A stretch of DNA of 64,000 bases, taken from the sequence record KX130862. One strand, written 5' to 3'. Below the pieces are notes generated by a model. The model had not been told where the DNA came from. It made no database searches and was given only the letters and a program-made list of their open reading frames with translations. Within the stretch, counting starts at the first letter, position 1. Every line of letters begins with the position of its first letter. Below are positions 19,624 to 64,000 of this stretch, piece by piece. The translations under genes were made by a program, and so were the position numbers. Source of the stretch: Shigella phage SHFML-26.

Positions 19624-19961
19624 CTAGTACTCAATCCTCGATTATAAGAATCTACTAAACGGTCAACCATTGAATGACAAGCGGCTTTATCTTTCTCCTC
19701 CGCAACTGAACATTCTAAGGTATTCCACTTTTTAGCATATCGTTTTAACAATGTATCATTTTTGTATCTGCTTGATTTATCTCTTTCTCCGTCTTTATAT
19801 GCATATATTAATTTCTGCGCAAATTCAGCTTGGCATGCTTTATTTTTCCCGCAATAATCCGCTGCAGTACGGTTTACATACTCTCTAATTTCAGTATATG
19901 ATGTATCTGCTAACGCAGAAAATGAAATTAATCCTATACATAAAACCAAAATTTTAGTCAT
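19620..19961 (-). CDS. secreted/periplasmic hypothetical protein
   Basis: N-terminal signal peptide MTKILVLCIGLISFSALA. Confidence 0.5.
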   Translation of the reverse strand: MTKILVLCIGLISFSALADTSYTEIREYVNRTAADYCGKNKACQAEFAQKLIYAYKDGERDKSSRYKNDTLLKRYAKKWNTLECSVAEEKDKAACHSMVDRLVDSYNRGLSTR

Positions 19962-20328
19962 TTACTATTTCCAAAAGTTTATTATTTTTAAGGTAATTAG
20001 CCTTTTCTAGGACTTCAGAAGCATATTTAGAACCTGCTTTAACATTCCATCCCGAATTATAAGAGGATATTGCTTTTCTTATATCGCCCTTATGTATATT
20101 TAACCAATAAGAAAGTTCAATGTACGCCCAGGAAGCTGAATTGGACCGTTTATTCAACATTCTTTTTATTTCAGCATCGGTCATATTATAACCAAGTTCC
20201 TTGACTCTCGCTCGCATAGTAGGCAAATAATTTTGGAACATTCCATAGGCATGATGCTTTGGTTTAGATTTTAAATTAACTCCGGCAGAGCTTTCTTGCC
20301 ACAAAATAGCAGCCATTATATGACCCAA
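19954..20328 (-). CDS. lytic transglycosylase (SLT) domain protein, possibly 3' part of a frame-shifted gene
   Basis: WQESS catalytic motif, GMFQ, SYNSGWN; frame open upstream across the overlap with 20316-20498. Confidence 0.6.
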   Translation of the reverse strand: MGHIMAAILWQESSAGVNLKSKPKHHAYGMFQNYLPTMRARVKELGYNMTDAEIKRMLNKRSNSASWAYIELSYWLNIHKGDIRKAISSYNSGWNVKAGSKYASEVLEKANYLKNNKLLEIVND

Positions 20329-20498
20329 TCCGCTCTTATGGATGTTTTTGTGTGTTTTATATTTTCCATCCTTAGAAAATTGTTCCCGAATTGATACGCG
20401 TAACGCATGTTATCGAGTTGGACATTACTGAAAGTATGCTCGGAGCTATGTGCCATCATTGAAATGGCCAATAGACCAGCGAGTAGTGCTTTTCTCAT
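20316..20498 (-). CDS. signal-peptide ORF, possibly 5' part of the SLT gene
   Basis: MRKALLAGLLAISMMAHS signal peptide; overlaps SLT ORF in another frame. Confidence 0.4.
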   Translation of the reverse strand: MRKALLAGLLAISMMAHSSEHTFSNVQLDNMRYAYQFGNNFLRMENIKHTKTSIRADWVI

Positions 20499-20505
20499 GC
20501 TTACC

Positions 20506-20967
20506 TCATTGAGTTTTAATTACTGCTTTAGAAGCCTTTCCTGGTAAACGACGACTGTTGATAATTGCCATCCTGCATTGAAGTGACGGGTTTTTGAACT
20601 TCTCATTAGGCTTACAAACCGTAAATCCAAGCCAAAGATTTCCATCTGTGATTTCTAAACGTCCAGGACGATATTCAACCCCATCAATAAAATCCTCGTC
20701 AATGTCAGGACGCGGAGGCATACTCAGGAATTCATTAACTTCTAAAACATGGTCTTTTATTTTATGGAATAATTCAAAAACATATGTCTCATCAATCTCC
20801 CGTTGAATTGCACGATCAAGAAGATGTTGAGAATATTTTAGATGAAACGATGAGACTCCTGCTGCTTTTGATGCCTCACGAATCTCATTGTTAATTTGAC
20901 GAAACTCCGACTCAAAATGACGACGAAGCTTATTTCGACGGATAAAAACTTCTGTATTGATAGTCAT
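20506..20967 (-). CDS. regB: RegB site-specific endoribonuclease
   Basis: 153 aa; T4 RegB size and position. Confidence 0.75.
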   Translation of the reverse strand: MTINTEVFIRRNKLRRHFESEFRQINNEIREASKAAGVSSFHLKYSQHLLDRAIQREIDETYVFELFHKIKDHVLEVNEFLSMPPRPDIDEDFIDGVEYRPGRLEITDGNLWLGFTVCKPNEKFKNPSLQCRMAIINSRRLPGKASKAVIKTQ

Positions 20968-25665: not shown

Positions 25666-25947
25666 TTAATTGTATTTTGTAATCTTTTTTCTTTGCCAAT
25701 TTATTTTAAAATTATCATAATGAAAATATAATATGGTACCAAAGAATGAAAACAATGAAATAATTTTAGTATAGCGAAGTTCACTCCAAACTTCTATTAT
25801 ATTTACTGTGCCGTCAATGTTTAAAATAAGACAGTCAATTAACAATCCAAAAAGACTACCCGCAAGAGCTGCAGCCAACGCCACAGCAAAAATTAAAAAT
25901 GACTCAGGAAGCGAATATTTGACTTTATTTAGTTTTGGCTTTTGCAT
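25666..25947 (-). CDS. small membrane protein
   Basis: Two hydrophobic segments. Confidence 0.5.
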   Translation of the reverse strand: MQKPKLNKVKYSLPESFLIFAVALAAALAGSLFGLLIDCLILNIDGTVNIIEVWSELRYTKIISLFSFFGTILYFHYDNFKINWQRKKITKYN

Positions 25948-26342
25948 CGTGATTCCTTAACAAATTTCATAATTTCATCAAATTCATACGCAGCAAGTTT
26001 AAGCTGATGTTCCTTTTTAATCTTTTTACACTGTGCTTTCCAATCACGTACGCGTTTACGATAATGCCTTCCTTGATACCAGTATCCTATCCAATTTACA
26101 GGTACTAATAAAAGCGGAACTACCAATGGAAGAATTAGTGTTGACGCAAATATTACATTAGATTCAATATTAGTCATAACATCTATAATTATTCCAACCC
26201 CCAGTAGAATTACAAATGATACAGCTATTACAGGACCTATTAATACATCAGTAGAAATTAGCTGGCGCTTTAATTCATACTTTAAGGGTTTACTTGGAAG
26301 ATACATTGATGGCTTTGACATATTCTCTACATTCCTTAACAA
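25929..26342 (-). CDS. membrane protein
   Basis: Multiple hydrophobic helices. Confidence 0.5.
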   Translation of the reverse strand: MLRNVENMSKPSMYLPSKPLKYELKRQLISTDVLIGPVIAVSFVILLGVGIIIDVMTNIESNVIFASTLILPLVVPLLLVPVNWIGYWYQGRHYRKRVRDWKAQCKKIKKEHQLKLAAYEFDEIMKFVKESRCKSQN

Positions 26343-28439: not shown

Positions 28440-28515
28440 TGGTCGAGGCAGTAGGGATCGAACCTACGACCCAGGACTTAGAAGGTCCTTGCTCTTCCTT
28501 CTGAGCTATGCCCCG
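28440..28515 (-). tRNA. tRNA-Arg (anticodon UCU), CCA encoded
   Basis: Hand-folded cloverleaf: acceptor CGGGGCA/TGCCTCG, anticodon loop CUUCUAA, T-loop GTAGG-TTCGATC-CCTAC, 3' ACCA. Confidence 0.85.
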
Positions 28516-28518
28516 TAA

Positions 28519-29184
28519 TTAAAATTTCATTTTTCGACCTTTAAACCATCCTTCTGGAATTGGGTCAGTTTTCTTAATACGTTTAGAAACTTTTTCATCT
28601 AATGAATGAATCCACATCATACCAAATTGGGAATTCTTTTCACCTTTCTGGTGATTATTTTTAGCGTGAATTTCTTTCATTTTATTAATAGTTTCATCTG
28701 AATGGGACTTACCCAAGAAAGATTTAGTATTTGAAAATTTCTCTCTATACTTAGGATTATCCCAAAGCTGTTTAAACCTTTCTGAACCCATTTTACGATA
28801 TTTTTCTTTAAGGTCTGGGTCGTTCTCAAATCTGGTTTTAAAAGCGGCAGCTCCTTTTAAGGAAGCTTCTTTCTTTTTATCCAAATATTCTTTAGTGTTT
28901 AAATGGTCCCAACCACCTTCACCACCTAATTTCAAATTATAAACATCAGGGCGCTTTAAAAACTCTTCAGTCACAATATTCTTTTCTGACTCAAACATAG
29001 AGGTTTTATCGTCAAAGAACTCTAATATTTCTTTAGAAAAATTTTCTATACCATACTTATCTTGGGCTCTTTTTAATAATTTACCAGAACCCATATATCC
29101 ATCATCTAAATTTTCAGTTGAATGGGCGCCTATATAAATTTTATTATTAATTTTATTTGTTATTTTATAAGTGTAATAGAACAT
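28519..29184 (-). CDS. segB: GIY-YIG homing endonuclease SegB
   Basis: 221 aa; YYTYKITN...YIGAHS...DGYMGSG; inside tRNA cluster as in T4. Confidence 0.85.
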   Translation of the reverse strand: MFYYTYKITNKINNKIYIGAHSTENLDDGYMGSGKLLKRAQDKYGIENFSKEILEFFDDKTSMFESEKNIVTEEFLKRPDVYNLKLGGEGGWDHLNTKEYLDKKKEASLKGAAAFKTRFENDPDLKEKYRKMGSERFKQLWDNPKYREKFSNTKSFLGKSHSDETINKMKEIHAKNNHQKGEKNSQFGMMWIHSLDEKVSKRIKKTDPIPEGWFKGRKMKF

Positions 29185-29225
29185 AAATATCTCCTATTTC
29201 TAAGAGTATTTATGTTCTCAAAATA

Positions 29226-29297
29226 TGGCCCTGGGTGGAATTGAACCACCATCTGGCGATTATGAGTCGCTTGCTTGAACCTTCCAGCTACAGGGCC
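29226..29297 (-). tRNA. tRNA-Ile (anticodon CAU, AUA-reading type)
   Basis: Acceptor GGCCCTG/CAGGGCC, anticodon loop CUCAUAA, T-arm GGTGG-TTCAATT-CCACC. Confidence 0.8.
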
Positions 29298-29303
29298 TTG
29301 ATA

Positions 29304-29376
29304 TGCTGATTGACGGAATCGAACCGCCGACCTTCTCATTACAAGTGAGTTGCTCTACCTACTGAGCTAAATCAGC
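29304..29376 (-). tRNA. tRNA-Thr (anticodon UGU)
   Basis: Acceptor GCTGATT/AATCAGC, D-arm GCTC-AGTAGGTA-GAGC, anticodon loop CUUGUAA. Confidence 0.85.
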
Positions 29377-29383
29377 GAAATTA

Positions 29384-29470
29384 CGGAGGCGATAGGATTT
29401 GAACCTATGAGTCGCCGGAGCGACTGCCGGTTTTCAAGACCGGTGCATTAAACCACTCTGCCACGCCTCC
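29384..29470 (-). tRNA. tRNA-Ser (anticodon UGA), long variable arm
   Basis: Acceptor GGAGGCG/CGCCTCC, anticodon loop CUUGAAA, extended variable arm. Confidence 0.85.
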
Positions 29471-29472
29471 AG

Positions 29473-29546
29473 TCTCCGCGGCAGGATTTGAACCTGCGAC
29501 ATTCTGCTCCCAAAGCAGACGCTCTACCAAACTGAGCTACACGAAG
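29473..29546 (-). tRNA. tRNA-Pro (anticodon UGG)
   Basis: D-arm GCTC-AGTTGGTA-GAGC, anticodon loop UUUGGGA; 2 nt from tRNA-Ser. Confidence 0.85.
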
Positions 29547-29558
29547 TAAATTAAATTT

Positions 29559-29630
<72 letters not shown>

Positions 29631-29636
29631 AAACTT

Positions 29637-29723
29637 TGGTACGAGAAGTGGGACTCGAACCCACAAGGAAATCATTCCGCAGCATTTTAAGTGCTGTGCC
29701 TTTACCAATTTGACCATTCTCGC
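29637..29723 (-). tRNA. tRNA-Leu (anticodon UAA), long variable arm, CCA encoded
   Basis: Acceptor GCGAGAA/TTCTCGT, anticodon loop CUUAAAA, 3' ACCA. Confidence 0.85.
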
Positions 29724-29724
29724 G

Positions 29725-29797
29725 CTGGGAATAAAGGACTCGAACCTTTGCATCCTGGAATCAAAATCCAGTGCCTTACCAACTTGGCTAATTCCCA
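29725..29797 (-). tRNA. tRNA-Gln (anticodon UUG)
   Basis: Acceptor TGGGAAT/ATTCCCA, anticodon loop UUUUGAU; 1 nt from tRNA-Leu. Confidence 0.85.
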
Positions 29798-38808: not shown

Positions 38809-39089
38809 GTTATGATAAGTGTGTTACTGCTGGCCATGAAGCGTGGCCTCCAACAGTTGTGAATGCTACGCAAAGTAAAGTATTCACTGGAGGAATTGCT
38901 GTTCTAGTAGAAGGCGATCCAATTACAGAACATACAGAAATTAAAAAGCCATATGAAACACATGGCGGAGTGACACAACCCAGAACTTCTAAGGTATATG
39001 TCACTGGAAAGAAAGCTGTTCAAATGGCTGATCCAATATCATGTGGTGATACTGTGGCTCAGGCATCATCTAAAGTATTCATTAAATAG
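38796..39089 (+). CDS. 5.4: PAAR-repeat tip protein gp5.4
   Basis: 97 aa. Confidence 0.85.
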
Positions 39090-39097
39090 GATTTAAA

Positions 39098-41080
39098 ATG
39101 GCAAATACCCCTGTAAATTATCAATTAACAAGAACAGCAAATGCTATTCCCGAGATATTCGTCGGGGGTACGTTTGCTGAAATAAAACAAAACCTCATTG
39201 AATGGCTTAATGGCCAAAATGAATTTTTGGATTATGATTTTGAAGGCTCAAGATTAAACGTTCTGTGTGACCTTTTGGCTTATAATACGCTGTACATTCA
39301 GCAGTTTGGTAATGCTGCTGTATATGAAAGCTTTATGCGTACTGCTAACTTACGAAGCTCAGTTGTTCAAGCTGCACAAGATAACGGATATTTACCTACT
39401 TCAAAATCCGCTGCGCAAACCGAAATTATGTTAACATGCACCGACGCATTGAATAGGAATTACATTACTATTCCTCGTGGTACTCGCTTTTTAGCATATG
39501 CAAAGGATACTTCTGTTAATCCATATAACTTCGTTTCTACCGAAGACGTTATTGCTATTCGTGATAAAAATAACCAATATTTTCCACGTTTAAAATTGGC
39601 CCAGGGACGTATAGTAAGAACTGAAATCATTTATGATAAATTAACACCTATTATCATTTATGACAAAAATATAGATAGAAACCAAGTTAAACTATATGTC
39701 GATGGAGCAGAATGGATTAACTGGACAAGAAAGTCAATGGTTCATGCTGGTTCTACATCAACAATTTACTACATGCGTGAAACTATTGATGGAAATACTG
39801 AGTTTTATTTTGGTGAAGGCGAGATTTCTGTTAATGCGGCAGAAGGAGCATTGACTGCTAATTATATTGGAGGTCTTAAACCTACCCAGAACTCTACGAT
39901 TGTTATTGAGTACATCAGTACTAATGGTGCTGACGCGAACGGAGCAGTCGGATTTTCATACGCAGATACATTAACAAATATAACTATCATCAATATTAAT
40001 GAAAATCCAAACGGTGACCCAGATTTTGTTGGGGCAGATGGAGGCGGTGATCCAGAAGATATTGAGCGTATTCGCGAATTGGGTACTATTAAACGCGAAA
40101 CCCAGCAACGATGCGTAACTGCGACTGACTATGATACATTCGTTTCAGAGAGATTTGGTTCTATTATTCAAGCTGTTCAAACTTTCACTGATTCTACTAA
40201 ACCCGGGTATGCATTTATTGCTGCTAAACCTAAATCAGGACTGTATTTAACTACTGTACAGCGTGAAGATATTAAAAATTATCTCAAAGACTATAATTTA
40301 GCTCCTATTACGCCATCAATTATTTCTCCTAATTATCTTTTTATTAAGACTAATTTAAAAGTCACATATGCTTTAAATAAACTACAAGAATCCGAGCAGT
40401 GGCTTGAAGGTCAAATAATTGATAAAATTGATCGCTATTATACCGAAGATGTAGAAATTTTTAACTCGTCTTTCGCTAAATCTAAGATGTTAACTTATGT
40501 AGATGATGCAGATCATTCTGTCATTGGTTCATCAGCGACTATTCAAATGGTTCGTGAAGTACAAAACTTCTATAAAACACCTGAAGCAGGTATTAAATAC
40601 AATAATCAAATAAAAGATCGTTCTATGGAATCTAATACGTTTTCATTTAATTCTGGACGAAAGGTTGTAAATCCTGATACTGGTTTAGAAGAAGATGTAT
40701 TATATGATGTTCGTATAGTATCAACAGACCGAGATTCTAAAGGAATTGGTAAAGTTATTATTGGTCCATTTGCTTCTGGCGATGTTACAGAAAATGAAAA
40801 CATTCAGCCATATACAGGCAATGATTTTAATAAATTAGCAAATTCTGATGGACGCGACAAATACTATGTTATCGGTGAAATAAATTATCCGGCTGACATG
40901 ATTTATTGGAATATCGCTAAAATTAATTTAACATCTGAAAAATTTGAGGTTCAGACTATTGAATTATATTCTGACCCAACCGATGATGTTATCTTTACCC
41001 GTGATGGTTCACTGATTGTATTTGAAAATGATTTACGTCCGCAATACTTAACTATCGATTTGGAGCCTATATCACAATGA
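39098..41080 (+). CDS. 6: baseplate wedge subunit gp6
   Basis: 660 aa. Confidence 0.9.
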   Translation: MANTPVNYQLTRTANAIPEIFVGGTFAEIKQNLIEWLNGQNEFLDYDFEGSRLNVLCDLLAYNTLYIQQFGNAAVYESFMRTANLRSSVVQAAQDNGYLPTSKSAAQTEIMLTCTDALNRNYITIPRGTRFLAYAKDTSVNPYNFVSTEDVIAIRDKNNQYFPRLKLAQGRIVRTEIIYDKLTPIIIYDKNIDRNQVKLYVDGAEWINWTRKSMVHAGSTSTIYYMRETIDGNTEFYFGEGEISVNAAEGALTANYIGGLKPTQNSTIVIEYISTNGADANGAVGFSYADTLTNITIININENPNGDPDFVGADGGGDPEDIERIRELGTIKRETQQRCVTATDYDTFVSERFGSIIQAVQTFTDSTKPGYAFIAAKPKSGLYLTTVQREDIKNYLKDYNLAPITPSIISPNYLFIKTNLKVTYALNKLQESEQWLEGQIIDKIDRYYTEDVEIFNSSFAKSKMLTYVDDADHSVIGSSATIQMVREVQNFYKTPEAGIKYNNQIKDRSMESNTFSFNSGRKVVNPDTGLEEDVLYDVRIVSTDRDSKGIGKVIIGPFASGDVTENENIQPYTGNDFNKLANSDGRDKYYVIGEINYPADMIYWNIAKINLTSEKFEVQTIELYSDPTDDVIFTRDGSLIVFENDLRPQYLTIDLEPISQ

Positions 41081-44000
41081 CAGTAAAAGCACCTTCAGTC
41101 ACTAGTCTCAGAATTTCCAAGTTATCCGCAAATCAGGTGCAAGTACGCTGGGATGACGTTGGTGCTAATTTCTACTATTTTGTAGAAATCGCTGAGACAA
41201 AAACAGACTCGGGGGAAAATCTCCCGAGTGATCAATATCGTTGGATTAATTTAGGATATACAGCAAACAATAGTTTCTTTTTTGATGATGCTGATCCACT
41301 AACATCATACATCATTAGAGTAGCTACAGCTGCACAAGATTTTGAGCAATCTGATTGGGTTTATACGGAAGAGTTTGAAACTTTTGCTACGAATGCTTAC
41401 ACATTTCAAAACATGATTGAAATGCAATTAGCCAATAAATTCATTCAGGAAAAGTTTACTCTTAACAATTCTAATTATGTCAATTTTAATAATGACACTA
41501 TAATGGCTGCATTGATGAATGAATCGTTCCAATTCAGCCCATCATATGTTGATGTTTCATCAATCAGTAATTTTATTATTGGTGAAAATGAGTATCATGA
41601 AATACAAGGTTCCATTCAGCAAGTATGTAAGGATATTAACCGAGTTTATTTGATGGAATCAGAAGGGATTCTATATCTTTTTGAGCGTTATCAACCCGTG
41701 GTTAAAGTATCTAATGATAAAGGACAAACCTGGAAAGCTGTAAAGCTCTTCAATGACCGTGTAGGATATCCTTTATCTAAGACAGTATATTACCAATCTG
41801 CAAACACAACATACGTTCTAGGATACGACAAGATTTTCTACGGCCGTAAATCTACTGATGTTAGATGGTCAGCTGATGATGTCAGATTTAGTTCGCAGGA
41901 TATAACATTTGCTAAACTTGGTGACCAATTGCATCTAGGATTTGATGTAGAAATTTTTGCCACTTATGCGACTTTACCAGCGAATGTATACCGCATTGCA
42001 GAAGCTATTACTTGCACCGATGATTACATTTACGTTGTCGCCAGAGATAAAGTTAGATACATAAAAACGAGTAATGCACCTATAGATTCTGATCCATTAT
42101 CTCCAACATATTCGGAAAGACTTTTTGAACCTGATACAATGACTATAACTGGAAATCCTAAAGCAGTATGCTATAAAATGGATTCTATCGGTGATAAAGT
42201 TTTTGCTCTTATTATTGGTGAAGTTGAAACATTAAATGCCAATCCGAGAACTTCAAAAATAATTGATTCTGCTGATAAAGGAATATATGTTTTAAATCAT
42301 GACGAAAAAACATGGAAAAGAGTTTTCGGTAATACCGAAGAAGAAAGAAGACGTATTCAACCCGGATATGCGAATATGTCAACTGACGGTAAATTAGTTT
42401 CTCTATCTTCGAGTAATTTTAAATTTTTAAGTGATAACATTGTTAATGACCCTGAAACTGCAGCAAAATATCAGTTAATCGGTGCTGTTAAATATGAATT
42501 TCCTCGTGAATGGTTAGCTGATAAGCATTATCATATGATGGCATTTATAGCGGATGAAAAATCTGATTGGGAGACTTTTACTCCTCAACCAATGAAATAC
42601 TACGCAGAACCGTTCTTTAACTGGTCTAAAAAATCTAACACACGCTGTTGGATAAACAATTCTGATAGAGCTGTAGTAGTTTATGCTGATTTAAAATACA
42701 CTAAAGTTATAGAAAATATTCCGGAAACATCACCAGATAGATTAGTTCATGAATACTGGGATGATGGTGATTGCACTATAGTAATGCCAAATGTTAAATT
42801 CACTGGATTTAAAAAATATGCATCAGGAATGCTTTTCTATAAAGCCTCCGGTGAAATAATTTCTTACTATGATTTTAACTATCGTGTGAGAGATACAGTA
42901 GAAATTATTTGGAAGCCGACTGGAGTATTTTTAAAAGCATTTTTACAAAACCAAGAGCATGAGACTCCTTGGTCACCAGAAGAAGAGCATGGATTAGCTG
43001 ATCCTGATTTAAGACCATTAATTGGCACAATGATGCCTGATTCTTATTTGTTGCAGGATTCGAATTTTGAGGCATTTTGCGAAGCATATATTCAGTATCT
43101 TTCTGATGGATATGGAACTCAGTATAACAATTTACGAAATTTAATTCGTAATCAGTATCCACGAGAAGAGCATGCATGGGAATATTTGTGGTCAGAGATA
43201 TATAAAAGAAACATTTATTTGAACGCGGATAAGCGAGATGCTGTTGCAAGATTTTTTGAATCACGTAGCTATGATTTTTATTCTACTAAAGGAATTGAAG
43301 CATCATACAAGTTTCTTTTTAAAGTTCTTTATAATGAAGAAGTTGAAATTGAAATTGAATCTGGGGCTGGTACTGAATATGACATAATCGTTCAATCTGA
43401 TTCTTTGACTGAAGATTTAGTAGGACAAACGATTTATACAGCCACAGGAAGATGTAATGTTACTTATATAGAAAGAAGTTATTCTAATGGTAAATTGCAA
43501 TGGACCGTAACTATTCATAATCTTTTGGGAAGATTAATTGCTGGTCAAGAAGTTAAAGCAGAAAGACTCCCTAGTTTTGAAGGCGAAATTATTCGTGGAG
43601 TTAAAGGAAAGGATTTGCTTCAAAACAATATAGACTATATTAATAGAAGTAGATCATACTATGTAATGAAAATTAAATCCAATTTACCTTCTTCCCGCTG
43701 GAAATCTGACGTTATTCGTTTTGTTCATCCAGTAGGATTTGGATTTATAGCAATTACCCTTTTAACGATGTTTATTAATGTTGGTTTAACTCTTAAACAT
43801 ACAGAGACTATAATTAATAAATACAAAAACTATAAATGGGATTCTGGATTGCCTACTGAATATGCTGATAGAGTAGCTAAATTAACTCCAACCGGTGAAA
43901 TTGAGCATGATTCAGTAACAGGCGAAGCAATTTATGAGCCTGGCCCAATGGCTGGTGTAGAATATCCTCTTCCTGATGACTATAATGCTGAAAATAATAA

Positions 44001-44175
44001 TTCAATATTTCAAGGTCAATTGCCGTCTGAACGACGTAAATTAATGAGTCCCCTATTTGATGCTTCTGGAACAACATTTGCGCAATTTAGGGATTTAGTT
44101 AATAAACGTCTAAAAGATAATATAGGAAATCCAAGAGACCCTGAAAATCCAACACAGGTTAAAATAGATGAATGA
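41077..44175 (+). CDS. 7: baseplate wedge initiator gp7
   Basis: 1032 aa. Confidence 0.9.
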   Translation: MTVKAPSVTSLRISKLSANQVQVRWDDVGANFYYFVEIAETKTDSGENLPSDQYRWINLGYTANNSFFFDDADPLTSYIIRVATAAQDFEQSDWVYTEEFETFATNAYTFQNMIEMQLANKFIQEKFTLNNSNYVNFNNDTIMAALMNESFQFSPSYVDVSSISNFIIGENEYHEIQGSIQQVCKDINRVYLMESEGILYLFERYQPVVKVSNDKGQTWKAVKLFNDRVGYPLSKTVYYQSANTTYVLGYDKIFYGRKSTDVRWSADDVRFSSQDITFAKLGDQLHLGFDVEIFATYATLPANVYRIAEAITCTDDYIYVVARDKVRYIKTSNAPIDSDPLSPTYSERLFEPDTMTITGNPKAVCYKMDSIGDKVFALIIGEVETLNANPRTSKIIDSADKGIYVLNHDEKTWKRVFGNTEEERRRIQPGYANMSTDGKLVSLSSSNFKFLSDNIVNDPETAAKYQLIGAVKYEFPREWLADKHYHMMAFIADEKSDWETFTPQPMKYYAEPFFNWSKKSNTRCWINNSDRAVVVYADLKYTKVIENIPETSPDRLVHEYWDDGDCTIVMPNVKFTGFKKYASGMLFYKASGEIISYYDFNYRVRDTVEIIWKPTGVFLKAFLQNQEHETPWSPEEEHGLADPDLRPLIGTMMPDSYLLQDSNFEAFCEAYIQYLSDGYGTQYNNLRNLIRNQYPREEHAWEYLWSEIYKRNIYLNADKRDAVARFFESRSYDFYSTKGIEASYKFLFKVLYNEEVEIEIESGAGTEYDIIVQSDSLTEDLVGQTIYTATGRCNVTYIERSYSNGKLQWTVTIHNLLGRLIAGQEVKAERLPSFEGEIIRGVKGKDLLQNNIDYINRSRSYYVMKIKSNLPSSRWKSDVIRFVHPVGFGFIAITLLTMFINVGLTLKHTETIINKYKNYKWDSGLPTEYADRVAKLTPTGEIEHDSVTGEAIYEPGPMAGVEYPLPDDYNAENNNSIFQGQLPSERRKLMSPLFDASGTTFAQFRDLVNKRLKDNIGNPRDPENPTQVKIDE

Positions 44176-45172
44176 TTCAAGTGTTATCTATCGTGCGATA
44201 GTTACTTCAAAATTTAGAACAGAAAAAATGTTGAATTTTTATAATTCAATTGGAAGTGGTCCGGATAAAAACACTATCTTTATCACATTTGGAAGATCAG
44301 AACCGTGGTCATCAAATGAAAATGAGGTGGGCTTTGCCCCACCTTATCCAACCGATTCTGTATTAGGCGTAACTGACATGTGGACGCATATGATGGGAAC
44401 AGTAAAGGTTCTTCCATCAATGCTTGACGCAGTTATTCCTCGTCGAGATTGGGGAGATACTAGATATCCGGATCCATACACATTTAGAATTAACGATATT
44501 GTAGTGTGTAACTCAGCTCCTTACAACGCTACTGAATCAGGCGCAGGCTGGTTAGTATATCGTTGTTTAGATGTTCCTGATACTGGAATGTGTTCAATCG
44601 CATCTTTAACTGATAAGGATGAATGCCTTAAATTAGGCGGAAAATGGACACCTTCTGTTAGGTCAATGACTCCTCCTGAAGGTCGAGGAGATGCTGAAGG
44701 AACAATTGAACCTGGGGACGGGTATGTATGGGAATATCTTTTTGAGATTCCACCCGATGTATCTATAAATAGATGCACGAATGAATATATTGTGGTTCCT
44801 TGGCCTGAGGAATTAAAAGAAGACCCGACTAGATGGGGATATGAAGATAATCTCACTTGGCAGCAAGATGATTTTGGATTAATTTACCGGGTTAAGGCAA
44901 ATACTATCCGTTTTAAAGCATATTTAGATTCAGTTTATTTTCCTGATGCTGCATTGCCAGGAAATAAAGGATTTAGACAAATATCAATAATCACGAATCC
45001 TCTTGAAGCTAAAGCTCATCCAAATGACCCAAACGTTAAAGCTGAAAAGGATTATTATGACCCAGAAGATTTAATGAGGCATTCGGGCGAAATGATTTAT
45101 ATGGAAAATAGGCCACCTATTATTATGGCAATGGATCAAACAGAAGAAATCAATATTCTGTTTACATTTTAA
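44168..45172 (+). CDS. 8: baseplate wedge subunit gp8
   Basis: 334 aa. Confidence 0.9.
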   Translation: MNDSSVIYRAIVTSKFRTEKMLNFYNSIGSGPDKNTIFITFGRSEPWSSNENEVGFAPPYPTDSVLGVTDMWTHMMGTVKVLPSMLDAVIPRRDWGDTRYPDPYTFRINDIVVCNSAPYNATESGAGWLVYRCLDVPDTGMCSIASLTDKDECLKLGGKWTPSVRSMTPPEGRGDAEGTIEPGDGYVWEYLFEIPPDVSINRCTNEYIVVPWPEELKEDPTRWGYEDNLTWQQDDFGLIYRVKANTIRFKAYLDSVYFPDAALPGNKGFRQISIITNPLEAKAHPNDPNVKAEKDYYDPEDLMRHSGEMIYMENRPPIIMAMDQTEEINILFTF

Positions 45173-45177
45173 ATTAA

Positions 45178-45201
45178 GGGAGCCCATGGGCTCCCTTTTT
45201 T
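45178..45201 (+). terminator. rho-independent terminator
   Basis: Perfect palindrome GGGAGCCCATGGGCTCCC followed by TTTTTT after gene 8 stop. Confidence 0.7.
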
Positions 45202-45204
45202 CTT

Positions 45205-45212
45205 TATAAATA
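45205..45212 (+). promoter_or_regulatory. T4 late promoter TATAAATA (gene 9)
   Basis: TATAAATA about 25 nt upstream of gene 9 ATG. Confidence 0.7.
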
Positions 45213-45236
45213 TTATAAACTCATAAGGAAACCGCT

Positions 45237-46103
45237 ATGTTCATTCAAGAACCAAAGAAATTGATTGATACCGGCGAAATTGGTAACGCTTCTACTGGTG
45301 ATATCTTATTCGACGGTGGTAATAAAATTAATAGTGATTTTAACGCAATTTATAATGCGTTTGGCGATCAGCGTAAAATGGCAGTAGCAAATGGCACTGG
45401 AGCAGATGGTCAAATTATCCATGCTACTGGGTATTATCAAAAACACTCTATTACAGAGTACGCAACTCCAGTGAAAGTTGGCACTAGACATGATATTGAT
45501 ACCTCTACTGTAGGTGTTAAAGTTATTATTGAAAGAGGCGAACTCGGCGATTGTGTTGAATTCATTAACTCTAATGGATCAATATCAGTTACTAATCCTT
45601 TAACAATTCAAGCTATTGATTCAATTAAAGGTGTTTCAGGTAATTTAGTAGTAACTAGCCCATATAGTAAAGTTACTTTACGATGTATTTCATCTGATAA
45701 TTCTACATCTGTTTGGAATTATTCTATTGAAAGTATGTTTGGACAAAAGGAATCACCAGCTGAAGGTACATGGAATATTTCTACATCTGGATCAGTTGAC
45801 ATTCCACTATTTCACCGTACTGAATATAACATGGCTAAATTGTTAGTTACGTGCCAATCGATAGATGGAAGAAAAATTAAAACAGCAGAAATAAATATTC
45901 TTGTGGATAATGTTAATTCAGAGGTCATTTCTTCTGAATATGCTGTCATGCGAGTTGGGAATGAAACCGAAGAAGACGAAATCGCTAATATTGCATTTAG
46001 TATTAAAACCAACTATGTAACGGCGACTATAAGTTCTTCTACCGTTGGCATGAGAGCAGCAGTTAAAGTTATCGCTACGCAGAAAATCGGGGTGGCTCAA
46101 TAA
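45237..46103 (+). CDS. 9: baseplate wedge / long tail fiber socket gp9
   Basis: 288 aa. Confidence 0.9.
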   Translation: MFIQEPKKLIDTGEIGNASTGDILFDGGNKINSDFNAIYNAFGDQRKMAVANGTGADGQIIHATGYYQKHSITEYATPVKVGTRHDIDTSTVGVKVIIERGELGDCVEFINSNGSISVTNPLTIQAIDSIKGVSGNLVVTSPYSKVTLRCISSDNSTSVWNYSIESMFGQKESPAEGTWNISTSGSVDIPLFHRTEYNMAKLLVTCQSIDGRKIKTAEINILVDNVNSEVISSEYAVMRVGNETEEDEIANIAFSIKTNYVTATISSSTVGMRAAVKVIATQKIGVAQ

Positions 46104-47908
46104 TGAAACAAAATATTAATATCGGTAATGTTGTTGATGATGGTACCGGTGACTACCTGCGTAAAGGTGGTATAAAAATAAATGAAAACTTTGATGAACT
46201 TTATTATGAACTTGGCGATGGAGATGTTCCATATTCAGCCGGTGCCTGGAAAACTTATAATGCTTCATCTGGTCAAACATTAAAAGCTAAGTGGGGAAAA
46301 TCATACGCTATTAATACCTCTTCTGGAAGAGTAACTTTACAACTTCCTAAAGGAACTGTTAATGATTATAATAAAGTAATTAGAGCTAGGGATGTATTTG
46401 CAACATGGAACATTAATCCAGTTACTTTAGTAGCTGCTTCTGGAGATACAATTAAAGGGTCGTCATCATCGGTTGAAATTAATACTCAATTTAGTGATTT
46501 AGAGCTCGTTTATTGCGCTCCAGGACGTTGGGAGTATGTCAAAAACAAACAAATTGACAAAATTATTAGTTCAGATATTAGTAATGTAGCACGTAAAGAA
46601 TTTTTAGTCGAAGTTCAAGGACAAACGGACTTTTTAGATGTTTTCCGCGGAACTAGCTATAATGTTAATAACATCCGAGTAAAACACCGTGGTAATGAAT
46701 TATATTACGGCGATGTATTTAGTGAAAACAGTGACTTTGGCTCTCCTGGGGAAAATGAAGGAGAATTGATTCCTCTTGATGGATTTAATATTAGGTTAAG
46801 ACAGCCTTGTAATATTGGTGACACTGTTCAAATTGAAACATTTATGGATGGTATATCACAATGGAGAAGTTCATATACAAGACGCCAAATAAAAGTATTA
46901 GATTCAAAATTAACGTCAAAAACTTCTTTAGAAGGAAGTATTTACGTTACTGATTTATCAACAATGAAATCAATTCCATTCTCTGCATTTGGATTAATTC
47001 CTGGAGAACCTATTAATCCTAATTCTCTTGAAGTTCGTTTTAATGGAATTTTACAACAACAAGCTGGAACAGCAGGATATCCTCTGTTTTTGTGTGAAGG
47101 TGCTAACTCAGATACGCAAGCAGGATGTATATCTCTTGGTGGTGAATGGAAAGAATCGAACACAGATTATTCTATAGAATATGAAGATGGAAAACCTGTC
47201 AGTCTTTTATTTGATAGAAAATTTGAATCAGGTGATATAATCGTTATAACATGGTTTAATAATGATTTAGGAACTCTTTTAGAAAAAGATGACATTATTG
47301 AATTAACTGATGACCGTTATGTTAGTAAAGGATCATCTACTGAAGTTACTGGGGATGTAGCCTTAACAGATTTTGATAAAATCGGTTGGCCAAATGTTGA
47401 AAAAGTTGATTCTTATACTAGAACGTATAATTCAATATCATCTATTTTCGACAGCATTTATCCTGTTGGTTCAATTTATGAAAATGCTATAAACCCAAAT
47501 AATCCGGTGACTTATATGGGATTTGGTTCATGGAAATTATTTGGTAAAGGACAAGTTTTAGTAGGATGGAATGATGATGTTACGGATCCAAACTTTGCTT
47601 TAAACAATAATGATTTAGATTCTAGCGGAAATCCTTCACATACTGCCGGTGGAACAGTTGGTACAACATCAGTAACGCTTGAAAACGCAAATCTTCCTGC
47701 GACTAAAACTGATGAAAGAGTTTTAATTGAAGACGAAAATGGATCAGTTATTATTGGAGGTTGCCAATATGACCCAGACGAAACTGGTCCTATATATACA
47801 AAATATCGTGAAGACTACGCAACAACAAACTCTTCACATACTCCTCCTGCTAATATTAGTAATATTCAACCGTCTATTACTGTATACCGTTGGATAAGGA
47901 TTGCATAA
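46103..47908 (+). CDS. 10: baseplate wedge subunit and tail pin gp10
   Basis: 601 aa. Confidence 0.9.
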
Positions 47909-48567: not shown

Positions 48568-50120
48568 GTAACAATACATATCAGCACGTATCAAATGAAT
48601 CAAAATATGTTAAATTCGATCCTACTGGATCGAATTTTCCTGGCACTGTTACGACAGTACAGTCTGCATTATCAAAAATAAGTAATATCGGCGTAAATGG
48701 TATTCCTGATGCAACTATGGAAGTTAAAGGAATAGCAATGATTGCATCAGAGCAAGAGGTTTTAGATGGAACAAATAATTCTAAAATCGTTACACCAGCT
48801 ACATTAGCAACAAGATTATTGTATCCAAACGCTACTGAAACTAAATATGGTTTAACGCGCTATTCAACAAATGAAGAAACATTAGAAGGCTCAGATAATA
48901 ATTCATCAATAACGCCTCAAAAACTGAAATACCATACTGATGATGTGTTCCGAAATAGATATTCATCTGAGTCATCAAACGGGGTTATTAAAATATCATC
49001 TACGCCTGCAGCTTTGGCTGGTGTCGATGATACTACGGCGATGACTCCGTTGAAAACCCAAAAACTTGCAATAAAATTAATTTCACAAATAGCTCCTTCA
49101 GAAGACACTGCAACAGAATCTGTGAGAGGAGTAGTTCAATTATCTACTGTTGCACAAACTCGTCAAGGAACTCTCCGTGAAGGATATGCAATTTCCCCGT
49201 ATACCTTTATGAATTCTGTTGCAACACAAGAATATAAGGGTGTTATACGTCTAGGAACACAAGCAGAAATTAATAATAATTTGGGGGATGTTGCAGTAAC
49301 AGGTGAAACACTAAATGGTCGAGGAGCTACTGGTTCTATGCGTGGAGTAGTAAAATTAACGACGCAAGCTGGTATTGCTCCTGAAGGTGATAGCTCTGGG
49401 GCATTAGCCTGGAACGCAGATGTAATTAATACTCGTGGTGGACAAACTATTAATGGTTCTTTAAATTTAGACCATCTTACAGCAAATGGAATTTGGTCGC
49501 GCGGCGGAATGTGGAAAAATGGCGATCAACCTGTTGCCACTGAAAGATATGCGTCCGAACGGGTTCCGGTTGGAACTATTATGATGTTTGCGGGTGATTC
49601 AGCACCTCCAGGTTGGATTATGTGTCATGGTGGAACTGTGTCAGGAGACCAATATCCTGATTATAGAAACACGGTTGGAACAAGATTTGGCGGGGATTGG
49701 AATAATCCAGGGATTCCTGATATGCGAGGTCTTTTCGTCAGAGGAGCGGGCACCGGCGGTCATATTTTAAATCAACGAGGACAAGATGGTTATGGGAAGG
49801 ATAGACTTGGTGTAGGATGTGATGGAATGCATGTTGGCGGTGTTCAAGCACAGCAAATATCATACCATAAACATGCTGGTGCCTGGGGGGAAAATGGAAA
49901 TAACAGAGGTTATGCACCGTTTGGCGCATCTAATGGCAATGGATATTTGGGCAATGGTAGAAGCGCCGACTGGGACAACCATTTGTTCTTTACTAATGAC
50001 GGATTTGAAATGGGTGGTCCTCGTGACTCGTTCGGCACGTTAAATCGCGAAGGATTAATTGGTTATGAAACTAGACCATGGAATATATCATTAAACTATA
50101 TTATTAAAATTCATTACTAA
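48564..50120 (+). CDS. 12: short tail fiber gp12
   Basis: 518 aa; C-terminal receptor-binding region with HKH motif. Confidence 0.9.
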
Positions 50121-51618: not shown

Positions 51619-54128
<2,510 letters not shown>

Positions 54129-59361: not shown

Positions 59362-59412
59362 CACTATATCCTTAATTCTTTAATTCTATATGCCCTAGGT
59401 TAAACATAGGGA

Positions 59413-59420
59413 TATAAATA
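59413..59420 (+). promoter_or_regulatory. T4 late promoter TATAAATA (gene 19, proximal)
   Basis: TATAAATA about 15 nt upstream of gene 19 ATG. Confidence 0.6.
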
Positions 59421-59434
59421 CTACAGAGGCTAAT

Positions 59435-59926
59435 ATGTTTGTAGATGATGTAACACGAGCGTTTGAATCTGGTGATTTTGCTCGACCTAACTTATTCCAA
59501 GTAGAAATTTCTTATCTTGGACAAAATTTTACGTTTCAATGTAAAGCCACTGCTTTACCAGCTGGTATTGTAGAAAAAATTCCAGTCGGTTTTATGAACC
59601 GTAAAATTAACGTAGCAGGCGATCGTACATTCGATGACTGGACTGTTACAGTAATGAACGATGAGGCACATGATGCTCGTCAGAAGTTTGTTGATTGGCA
59701 AAGCATTGCTGCTGGGCAAGGGAACGAAATTACTGGTGGAAAACCAGCAGAGTATAAAAAGAGCGCTGTTGTTCGCCAATATGCTCGTGACGCTAAAACT
59801 GTAACAAAAGAAGTTGAAATTAAAGGCCTGTGGCCTACTAACGTGGGTGAACTTCAATTAGATTGGGATTCAAACAACGAAATCCAAACCTTTGAAGTAA
59901 CTCTCGCTCTCGATTATTGGGAATAA
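59435..59926 (+). CDS. 19: tail tube protein gp19
   Basis: 163 aa. Confidence 0.95.
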   Translation: MFVDDVTRAFESGDFARPNLFQVEISYLGQNFTFQCKATALPAGIVEKIPVGFMNRKINVAGDRTFDDWTVTVMNDEAHDARQKFVDWQSIAAGQGNEITGGKPAEYKKSAVVRQYARDAKTVTKEVEIKGLWPTNVGELQLDWDSNNEIQTFEVTLALDYWE

Positions 59927-59958
59927 AATGAATGGGGAGAAATCCCCATCCTGCTTAA

Positions 59959-61583
<1,625 letters not shown>

Positions 61584-61584
<1 letters not shown>

Positions 61585-61823
61585 TGGAAGGTTTAATTGA
61601 AGCTATTAAATCAAACGACCTCGTAGCCGCTCGTAAATTATTTGCTGAAGCCATGGCTGCAAGAACGATTGATTTAATTAAAGAAGAAAAAATCGCTATC
61701 GCTCGTAATTTCTTAATCGAAGGTGAAGAACCTGATGATGAGGATGACGAAGATAGTGATGATAAAGACGACAAAAAAGACAAAGACTCTGATGAAGATG
61801 ACGAAGACGAGGATGATGAATAA
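61584..61823 (+). CDS. 67: prohead core protein gp67 with acidic C-terminal tract
   Basis: 79 aa; C-terminal D/E-rich run. Confidence 0.85.
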
Positions 61824-62248
61824 TGCTTCTGATCCCTGAAACTCATGAATTAGTTCTCGAGAATGTCGAAGCACTTATTCCTGAAGCACAGGGTCGCTTT
61901 GACGAATTGTCTTCTGCTTTAAATAAAGACGATATAAATACAATTGTCGAGAATATGCTTGATGATGAAACTGATTTAGCGGTTGCATTAGCTTCTATTA
62001 ATGAAAATATGCCGTTAAATGAATTCATCGTTAAACATGTTTCTGCCCGTGGTGAAATTACTCGCACTAAAGATCGCAAAACGCGTGAACGTAATGCATT
62101 TCAAACCACTGGGCTGTCTAAAGCAAAACGTAGACAAATTGCTCGTAAAGCTACCAAAACGAAGATTGCCAATCCAGCAGGTCAATCTCGTGCTCAGCGT
62201 AAGCGTAAAAAAGCTCTTAAACGCCGTAAAGCATTAGGATTAAGCTAA
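61823..62248 (+). CDS. 68: prohead core protein gp68
   Basis: 141 aa. Confidence 0.85.
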
Positions 62249-62886
62249 TGAATGAACCCCAATTACTAATTGAAACTTGGGGTCAACCTGGCGAAATTAT
62301 TGATGGCGTACCAATGCTTGAATCTCATGATGGAAAAGACTTAGGTTTAAAACCGGGTTTATACATCGAAGGAATATTCATGCAAGCGGAAGTCGTCAAT
62401 AGAAATAAACGTCTTTATCCAAAACGTATATTAGAAAAAGCGGTAAAAGACTATATTAATGAGCAAGTTTTAACTAAACAAGCTCTCGGAGAATTAAATC
62501 ATCCTCCACGCGCTAATGTTGACCCGATGCAAGCCGCTATCATTATAGAAGATATGTGGTGGAAAGGAAATGACGTATACGGACGAGCTCGTGTTATTGA
62601 AGGTGACCATGGTCCTGGAGATAAATTAGCAGCTAATATTCGTGCCGGATGGATTCCAGGAGTTTCTTCTCGTGGATTAGGTTCATTGACTGACACAAAT
62701 AAAGGTTATCGTATCGTAAACGAAGGATTCAAATTAACTGTAGGTGTTGATGCAGTATGGGGTCCAAGTGCTCCAGATGCATGGGTAACTCCTAAGGAAA
62801 TTACCGAATCACAGACGGCGGAAGCCGATACAAGTGCCGATGACGCCTATATGGCTCTCGCAGAGGCCATGAAAAAAGCGTTATAA
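62248..62886 (+). CDS. 21: prohead core scaffold protease gp21
   Basis: 212 aa. Confidence 0.9.
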   Translation: MNEPQLLIETWGQPGEIIDGVPMLESHDGKDLGLKPGLYIEGIFMQAEVVNRNKRLYPKRILEKAVKDYINEQVLTKQALGELNHPPRANVDPMQAAIIIEDMWWKGNDVYGRARVIEGDHGPGDKLAANIRAGWIPGVSSRGLGSLTDTNKGYRIVNEGFKLTVGVDAVWGPSAPDAWVTPKEITESQTAEADTSADDAYMALAEAMKKAL

Positions 62887-62889
62887 ATA
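62882..62889 (+). promoter_or_regulatory. T4 late promoter TATAAATA (gene 22)
   Basis: TATAAATA overlapping gene 21 stop, about 28 nt upstream of gene 22 ATG. Confidence 0.7.
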
Positions 62890-62916
62890 TTATTATCTAA
62901 ACAACAGGACTACAAA

Positions 62917-63726
62917 ATGCTTAAAGAACAACTGATTGCCGAAGCGCAGAAAATTGATGCTTCCGTTGCTCTTGATAGTATTTTCGAATCAGTTAATATT
63001 TCTCCGGAAGCAAAAGAAACTTTCGGCACTGTATTCGAAGCTACCGTCAAGCAGCACGCCGTTAAATTAGCTGAATCTCATATCGCTAAAATTGCTGAAA
63101 AAGCAGAAGAAGAAGTAGAAAAAAATAAAGAAGAAGCCGAAGAAAAAGCTGAGAAGAAAATCGCTGAGCAAGCTTCTAAATTCATTGACCATCTTGCGAA
63201 AGAATGGCTCGCTGAAAATAAATTAGCAGTTGATAAAGGTATCAAAGCCGAACTGTTTGAATCCATGCTTGGTGGATTAAAAGAGCTCTTTGTTGAACAC
63301 AACGTTGTTGTTCCAGAAGAATCAGTTGATGTTGTAGCTGAAATGGAAGAAGAGCTGCAAGAACATAAAGAAGAATCAGCTCGTCTGTTCGAAGAACTCA
63401 ATATGCGCGACGCATATATCAATTATGTGCAGCGTGAAGTGGCATTGAGCGAAAGTACTAAAGATCTGACTGAGTCTCAAAAAGAAAAAGTCTCTGCTCT
63501 GGTCGAAGGTATGGATTATTCAGATGCATTCTCAAGTAAATTGAGTGCCATCGTAGAAATGGTGAAGAAGTCTAATAAAGATGAAAGCACTATTACTGAG
63601 AGTATAAATACTCCTGATACTGAAGCAGCCGGACTGAATTTCGTCACTGAAGCTGTAGAAGATAAAGCTGCACCTGGTGCAGAAGATATTGTAAGTGTAT
63701 ATGCGAAAGTCGCATCTCGTTTCTAA
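62917..63726 (+). CDS. 22: prohead core scaffold protein gp22
   Basis: 269 aa, acidic coiled coil. Confidence 0.9.
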   Translation: MLKEQLIAEAQKIDASVALDSIFESVNISPEAKETFGTVFEATVKQHAVKLAESHIAKIAEKAEEEVEKNKEEAEEKAEKKIAEQASKFIDHLAKEWLAENKLAVDKGIKAELFESMLGGLKELFVEHNVVVPEESVDVVAEMEEELQEHKEESARLFEELNMRDAYINYVQREVALSESTKDLTESQKEKVSALVEGMDYSDAFSSKLSAIVEMVKKSNKDESTITESINTPDTEAAGLNFVTEAVEDKAAPGAEDIVSVYAKVASRF

Positions 63727-63744
63727 TTTTAAAGGTTAACACAA

Positions 63745-64000
63745 ATGACTATCAAAACTAAAGCTGAACTTTTGAACAAATGGAAGCCATTACTGGAAGG
63801 TGAAGGTTTACCGGAAATTGCTAATAGCAAACAAGCGATTATCGCTAAAATCTTTGAAAACCAGGAAAAAGATTTCCAGACAGACTACCGGAATAATAAA
63901 GAACGAAAAAATTAGCTCAGGCATTCGGTTCTTTCTTAACAGAAGCTGAAATCGGTGGTGACCACGGTTACAATGCTACTAACATCGCTGCTGGTCAGAC
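63745..64000 (+). CDS. 23: major capsid protein gp23, N-terminal propeptide region (partial; reading frame disrupted near 63883-63915 in this sequence)
   Basis: MTIKTKAELLNKWKPLLEGEGLPEIANSKQAIIAKIFENQEKDFQT then in-frame TAG at 63913-63915; conserved AQAFGSFLTEAEIGGDHGYNATNIAAGQT continues in another frame. Confidence 0.8.

Follow-up and report, generated by a model that had tools for sequence, protein, structure and literature searches.

How should we read the record of a T-even phage, Shigella phage SHFML-26 (KX130862), in which the essential gene for the major capsid protein, gene 23, ends in a stop codon after 56 codons: is the gene truly disrupted, is the disruption bypassed during translation, or is the sequence itself in error? 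The stretch of DNA that we analysed (64,000 nucleotides, hereafter the window) comes from a Tequatrovirus (T-even) genome, of which it covers the part from the nrdD/tk region via the tRNA cluster to the baseplate, tail and head genes, and it shows about 97% identity (best 97-98%, INPHARED) to its nearest public relatives, e.g. PV295200.1, T6 and PST. The gene that precedes the locus in question, gene 22, encodes the prohead scaffolding core protein (62917..63726, plus strand; ORF list) and is intact at 269 aa; exactly the same gp22 protein is present on 15 public contigs. In the case of the eight gp22-identical contigs displayed, all match PF25623 (T4_CASP) and in all of them a 521-aa PF07068 (Gp23) gene begins 18 nt further on. 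The same spacing is found in the window, where the ATG at 63745 lies 18 nt from the end of gene 22 (as in 8/8 contigs), and the position of gene 22 thereby identifies the next ORF as gene 23. In phages of this type the 65 N-terminal residues of gp23 form a propeptide that is cut off by the prohead protease, and each head contains 930 copies of the mature protein, gp23* (PMC9958956).

The original prediction held that the frame of gene 23 is disrupted within the propeptide, and translation from the ATG bears this out: MTIKTK...ENQEKDFQT is followed by DYRNNKERKN and a TAG at 63913-63915, which makes 56 aa in all. The 5' ORF as written (63745..63915, plus strand; ORF list and translation) consists of 46 native gp23 residues, the 10 aberrant ones and the stop. 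The claimed continuation of gp23 in a different frame (LAQAFGSFLTEAEIGGDHGYNATNIAAGQ) was also recovered, namely in frame 3 as counted from the ATG; this frame opens no earlier than 63900, with TAA TAA at 63894-63899 just ahead of the open stretch. This continuation (63900..64000, plus strand; frame-3 translation) is in the +2 frame, reads RTKK-LAQAFGSFLTE|AEIGGDHGYNATNIAAGQ (the bar marks the cut) and extends past the end of the window; the same translation places the codon for Glu65 at 63942-63944 and that for the mature N-terminal Ala66 at 63945-63947 (both plus strand).

The earlier estimate of about five insertions within 35 nt could be sharpened. By means of a base-level alignment to three relatives, together with blastn gap lists against the sequences L001, L002 and L003, we mapped exactly five single-base insertions, all of them A, within 31 nt (63884, 63887, 63895/6, 63902/3 and 63914, plus strand), in the layout ACAG^A^CT^A^CCGGAATA^A^TAAAGA^A^CGAAAAAATT^A^GCTCAGG. 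The lesion (63884..63914) spans codons 47-55 of the 65-residue propeptide; its fifth inserted A produces the TAG stop (ATT^A^GCT), and the net shift of +5 puts the downstream part of the gene in the +2 frame. On both sides the sequence is invariant: over 139 nt 5' and 86 nt 3' of the lesion the consensus is matched without a difference, from 63915 on the window equals the relatives up to its end, and at the protein level the same identity holds for gp23 residues 1-46 and from residue 56 onward. As written, no uninterrupted frame passes through the 65-residue propeptide. Removal of the five A's restores it, and the 101-nt stretch that results is exactly that of T4, T2, T6 and RB51. The T4 peptide on which the original prediction was based (APEYKDEKIAQAF) matches the relatives' codons (GCT CCG GAA TAT AAA GAC GAA AAA ATT GCT CAG GCA). 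Given the base composition of the window, the probability that all five inserted bases are A is 0.0037, and a cluster of insertions in otherwise invariant flanks is far beyond chance.

The lesion was found in the record under study only. Using a query of 106 nt across the site, we obtained 762 matching phage records, and in none of them (0/762) did any of the five insertions occur. Identity reached 95.3% at most, i.e. 101/106 with five gaps and no mismatch (T4, T2, T6, RB51 and many others), and 274 records fell within the 95-99% band. One insertion in common would give an identity of at least 96.2%, so that the best value of 95.3% implies that not one of the 762 records has even a single insertion. 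The exact 45-mer of the lesion had no match in IMG/VR, the JGI metagenomes or the GTDB genomes, the truncated 56-aa product was absent among 153 billion public gene calls, and the complete E. coli assemblies yielded no T-even match. Conversely, an intact 521-aa gp23 is present in all eight displayed contigs that have a gp22 identical to that of the window, the relatives examined all have a single 521-codon gene 23 ORF with no two-frame arrangement, and an alignment of the last 7 kb of the window to L012 (Logan ERR12363570) contains exactly five gaps, which are the five A's. The literature yielded no comparable allele of engineered or escape origin: the frameshifts described in the CmdTAC preprint are in alt.-3, and in the Sextaphag Tequatrovirus 6phi13 gp23 is intact. 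We also considered, and rejected, a natural allele with a longer or divergent propeptide, as the non-inserted bases and the flanks are 100% consensus and a partial version of the lesion occurs in 0/762 records.

To place the lesion within the variation of its surroundings, the region 59400-64000 was scanned for alignment columns that are private to the window as compared to nine relatives. Of the 16 such columns, 10 belong to 63884-63914, and the remaining six are third-position substitutions at scattered sites, all synonymous (6/6), which indicates a lineage under (purifying) selection with no sign of decay. The substitution-level accuracy of the window is high, and its anomalies are of the indel type. 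Across the approximately 60 kb that can be aligned with relatives there is no other comparable cluster of insertions, and the non-triplet indels present elsewhere in the window are mostly intergenic or compensated within a few bases.

Three one-base homopolymer contractions in the window do break an ORF (20385, 25687 and 52939). The contraction at 20385 (C4 to C3) is private and unique among 501 phage records (BLAST); it lies some 115 nt into a conserved 181-aa gene of phrog_600 (19957-20519, minus strand), for which no function is assigned but which shows a weak lysozyme/transglycosylase-like similarity, and it splits this gene into two ORFs. It is another error in the sequence or else a pseudogene that only the window has. 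The contraction at 25687 (T7 to T6), likewise private and unique among 280 phage records (BLAST), falls in the final third of a conserved gene of phrog_2330 that encodes 120 aa (25669-25956, minus strand), where it alters the C-terminus, and is a suspect of the same kind. Both frameshifts are in non-essential genes and could be genuine. The third one, at 52939 (A7 to A6), affects a seg-like homing endonuclease located between genes 13 and 14 (52521-53353, phrog_655), which is split into pieces of 161 and 139 codons. Its sequence is 100% common to the phages vB_EcoM_F1 and FN, which identifies it as a real allele, apparently a circulating endonuclease allele in decay and no error. Exact-pattern scans of IMG/VR for these three homopolymer variants, which were run without a positive control, returned no match, and BLAST against the phage records was used instead.

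Several other length differences were observed along the window. Relative to L001 and L003, the end of gene 18 (tail sheath) that encodes the C-terminus contains a -1/+1 pair of indels, 6 nt apart (59252 and 59258), by which the frame of 659 codons is kept; since L012 appears collinear with the window at this point (its sole gaps being the five A's), the pair probably is a natural compensated variant. Gene 12 (short tail fibre) has, in the part that encodes the C-terminus (49896-50032), a compensating cluster of indels relative to the same two sequences, and its ORF of 518 aa is kept. The exact gp12 and the exact gp18 of the window had no match in any of the collections searched, and gp12 reads as a private variant in its C-terminal part. 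In the region of gene 67 (61739-61798) an acidic repeat rich in GAT/GAA varies in length in frame, by 3 to 18 nt among relatives, with gp67 ranging from 79 to 85 aa across contigs. Eight tRNA genes are found at 28440-29797; just 3' of that for tRNA-Arg (28440-28515, minus strand) there are dense small indels as compared to PV295200.1 (28347-28391), and the tRNA-Arg itself measures 76 nt, versus 77 nt in PV295200.1 (indel at 28496). The exact gp7 of the window (1032 aa) occurs in one public assembly only, L013 (Logan SRR31313013_43), which differs from the window at 80 of the 7100 positions within 39077-46176 (98.9% identity) and which, going by this comparison, is a close mosaic relative in that SRA run, i.e. 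a phage other than the source.

The reading that agrees best with these data is the one that the original prediction had favoured, an error in the sequence or its assembly: the lesion occurs in no other record searched, its deletion restores the consensus, the neighbouring private changes are synonymous only, and there are other private homopolymer frameshifts in the same record. Very probably, therefore, judged on the sequence comparisons, the five A's are errors in the record that are absent from the DNA of the phage, and the underlying gene is an ordinary, intact T-even gene 23 encoding a capsid precursor of 521 aa. A gp23 of 56 aa could not supply the 930 gp23* that a head needs, which means that an isolate with the gene as written could not be propagated. 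We know of no biological source from which the most constrained gene of the genome would gain five A's, independently of one another and within 31 nt, while all else stays unchanged. The tests performed make a real lesion or recoding improbable.

As to how such an error may have arisen, the extra A's would have entered the record when a locally ill-supported stretch was base-called, assembled, merged into a consensus or handled. The most specific model of the artefact assumes a flow-based read, of the 454 or Ion Torrent type, in which the A channel was over-called for some eight cycles in a row, such that each A flow truly counting 0 or 1 came out one too high. When the sequences are written in flow space (cyclic TACG order, fitted post hoc), the consensus and the window both take 51 flows, and they differ by +1 only at A flows 8, 12, 20, 28 and 36 (three times from 0 to 1 and twice from 1 to 2). 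Over the eight consecutive cycles all A flows that have a true count of 0 or 1 are affected, and outside this range none. Random placement of five A insertions yields five pure over-calls out of five with p = 0.063, so that the fit in flow space, from which we infer the platform post hoc, is only modestly improbable by chance. The two private contractions (20385 and 25687) have the signature of an indel-prone data source and, in combination with the flow-space fit, they make a locally poorly covered stretch of such data a suitable candidate for the origin of the lesion. Against an artefact it can be held that three of the five insertions create new bases rather than extend a homopolymer, which is atypical for errors in a polished nanopore or Ion consensus. 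Moreover, some 60 kb contain no comparable cluster, so that five errors in 31 nt would have to stem from something peculiar to this spot, for instance a gap in coverage, one poor read or a slip in editing.

The alternative that survives best is that the insertions are real and that gene 23 is null, the sequenced molecule being a defective or mutant genome, such as a non-viable variant that co-infecting wild type sustains in a mixed population, or a complemented knock-out of laboratory or engineered origin. We consider this unlikely. The sequence as given does encode an unambiguously truncated gp23, and the window already holds one real frameshift allele (A7 to A6 at 52939, common to F1 and FN); nevertheless, no mutational process known to us inserts A's at five separate sites within 31 nt, and an ectopic template for them was not found. 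Gene conversion or templated mutagenesis, including that from the gene 24 paralogue of the relatives, was rejected in this connection: no k-mer that spans two neighbouring insertions was found elsewhere. Decay does not accompany the lesion, the flanks being 100% consensus and the private SNPs all synonymous, and the lesion is present in no other record or collection searched. In the case of a designed knock-out one would expect a stop cassette that closes three frames, whereas the stops here occur in only two of the three. The number of gp23 copies needed per head (930; PMC9958956) also counts against a null allele.

Far less credible still is the idea that real insertions are overcome by an unstimulated −1 ribosomal frameshift that would yield full-length gp23, with the adjacent TAG aiding the slip. 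The site would be the heptamer A_AAA_AAT (63906..63912, plus strand; direct reading), which immediately precedes the TAG in the zero frame (where the codons up to the stop are CGA AAA AAT TAG), is situated inside a 15-nt overlap of the two open frames and is the only conceivable −1 slip site. This zero-frame X_XXY_YYZ heptamer adjoins the stop, its −1 product (...NNKERKK-LAQAF...) rejoins gp23 at LAQAFGSF, and the altered residues are confined to the 65-residue propeptide that is lost at maturation. The A6 run, however, is native and present in all relatives, where no frameshift is needed, and its phase in the window is a one-in-three accident. Neither of the usual stimulators is present: the fold of 63913-64000 (−19 kcal/mol) does not deviate from that of shuffled sequences (mean −19.1, z = 0.04) and so gives no stimulatory structure, and by direct reading there is no GGAGG- or AGGGAG-like Shine-Dalgarno sequence about 10 nt upstream of the heptamer (63885-63905, CTACCGGAATAATAAAGAACG). 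The two-frame arrangement is conserved in 0/762 relatives, and the origin of the five A's would be left unexplained. In E. coli, unstimulated −1 slippage on A_AAA_AAU amounts to a few percent at most, which is far below the need for the most abundant late protein. Two other ways to reach the downstream frame fare no better: a gene 60-like hop is unsupported, as the only in-frame AAT (63972-63974) would delete the cleavage site plus the mature N-terminus and there is no take-off stem-loop, and re-initiation is rejected, as the frame of gp23 contains neither ATG nor GTG nor TTG within 63900-64000.

The consequences differ accordingly between the readings. If frameshifting did take place, the propeptide segment APEYKDEKI would be replaced by DYRNNKERKKL, i.e. 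11 residues rewritten in a segment two residues longer that is later cleaved off, and a viable T-even phage would depend on recoding for its most abundant structural protein; the peptide diagnostic of insertions that are real and read through would be DYRNNKERKKLAQAF. A lesion that is both real and expressed would make this a remarkable capsid gene, but this is unsupported by the present evidence. If, as we consider far more probable, the five A's are errors in the record, the matter is one of curation value only: the genome stays usable and the fix consists of deleting the five A's. If the record is left as written, annotation pipelines would take the essential major capsid gene for a pseudogene or for a fragment of 56 aa, and analyses that compare genomes or use g23 as a marker gene would be skewed. 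The one-base frameshifts at 20385 and 25687 in the same record warrant equal suspicion.

Comparison with known systems puts the locus in perspective. The bypass in T4 gene 60 comes from the same phage group and, as in that system, the stop in the window directly follows a potential take-off codon (AAT at 63910-63912, then TAG); unlike gene 60, the window provides no usable landing codon or take-off stem-loop, and the interruption occurs in no relative. The −1 frameshift in E. coli dnaX (A_AAA_AAG with a Shine-Dalgarno sequence and a hairpin) resembles the window in that A_AAA_AAT stands beside a stop and the −1 frame leads into a functional protein, whereas the window lacks downstream structure, upstream Shine-Dalgarno sequence and conservation, and has a less shifty codon in the A-site. 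With the indel-type sequencing errors of 454, Ion Torrent and long-read data the lesion shares that it consists of insertions only, of one nucleotide type, each at an existing A flow, and the window adds to this its private homopolymer contractions (C4 to C3 and T7 to T6) and a clean substitution level; on the other hand, it is unusual for five errors within 31 nt to persist in a consensus, and three insertions do not lengthen a run. As compared to T-even gene 23 (PF07068), finally, the window deviates in propeptide codons 47-55, which are broken by five A's that occur in no other record; in all other respects compared it is alike, in that the gene follows gene 22 after an 18-nt spacer and that its first 139 nt, as well as the sequence from 63915 to the end of the window, are identical to those of its T-even counterparts.
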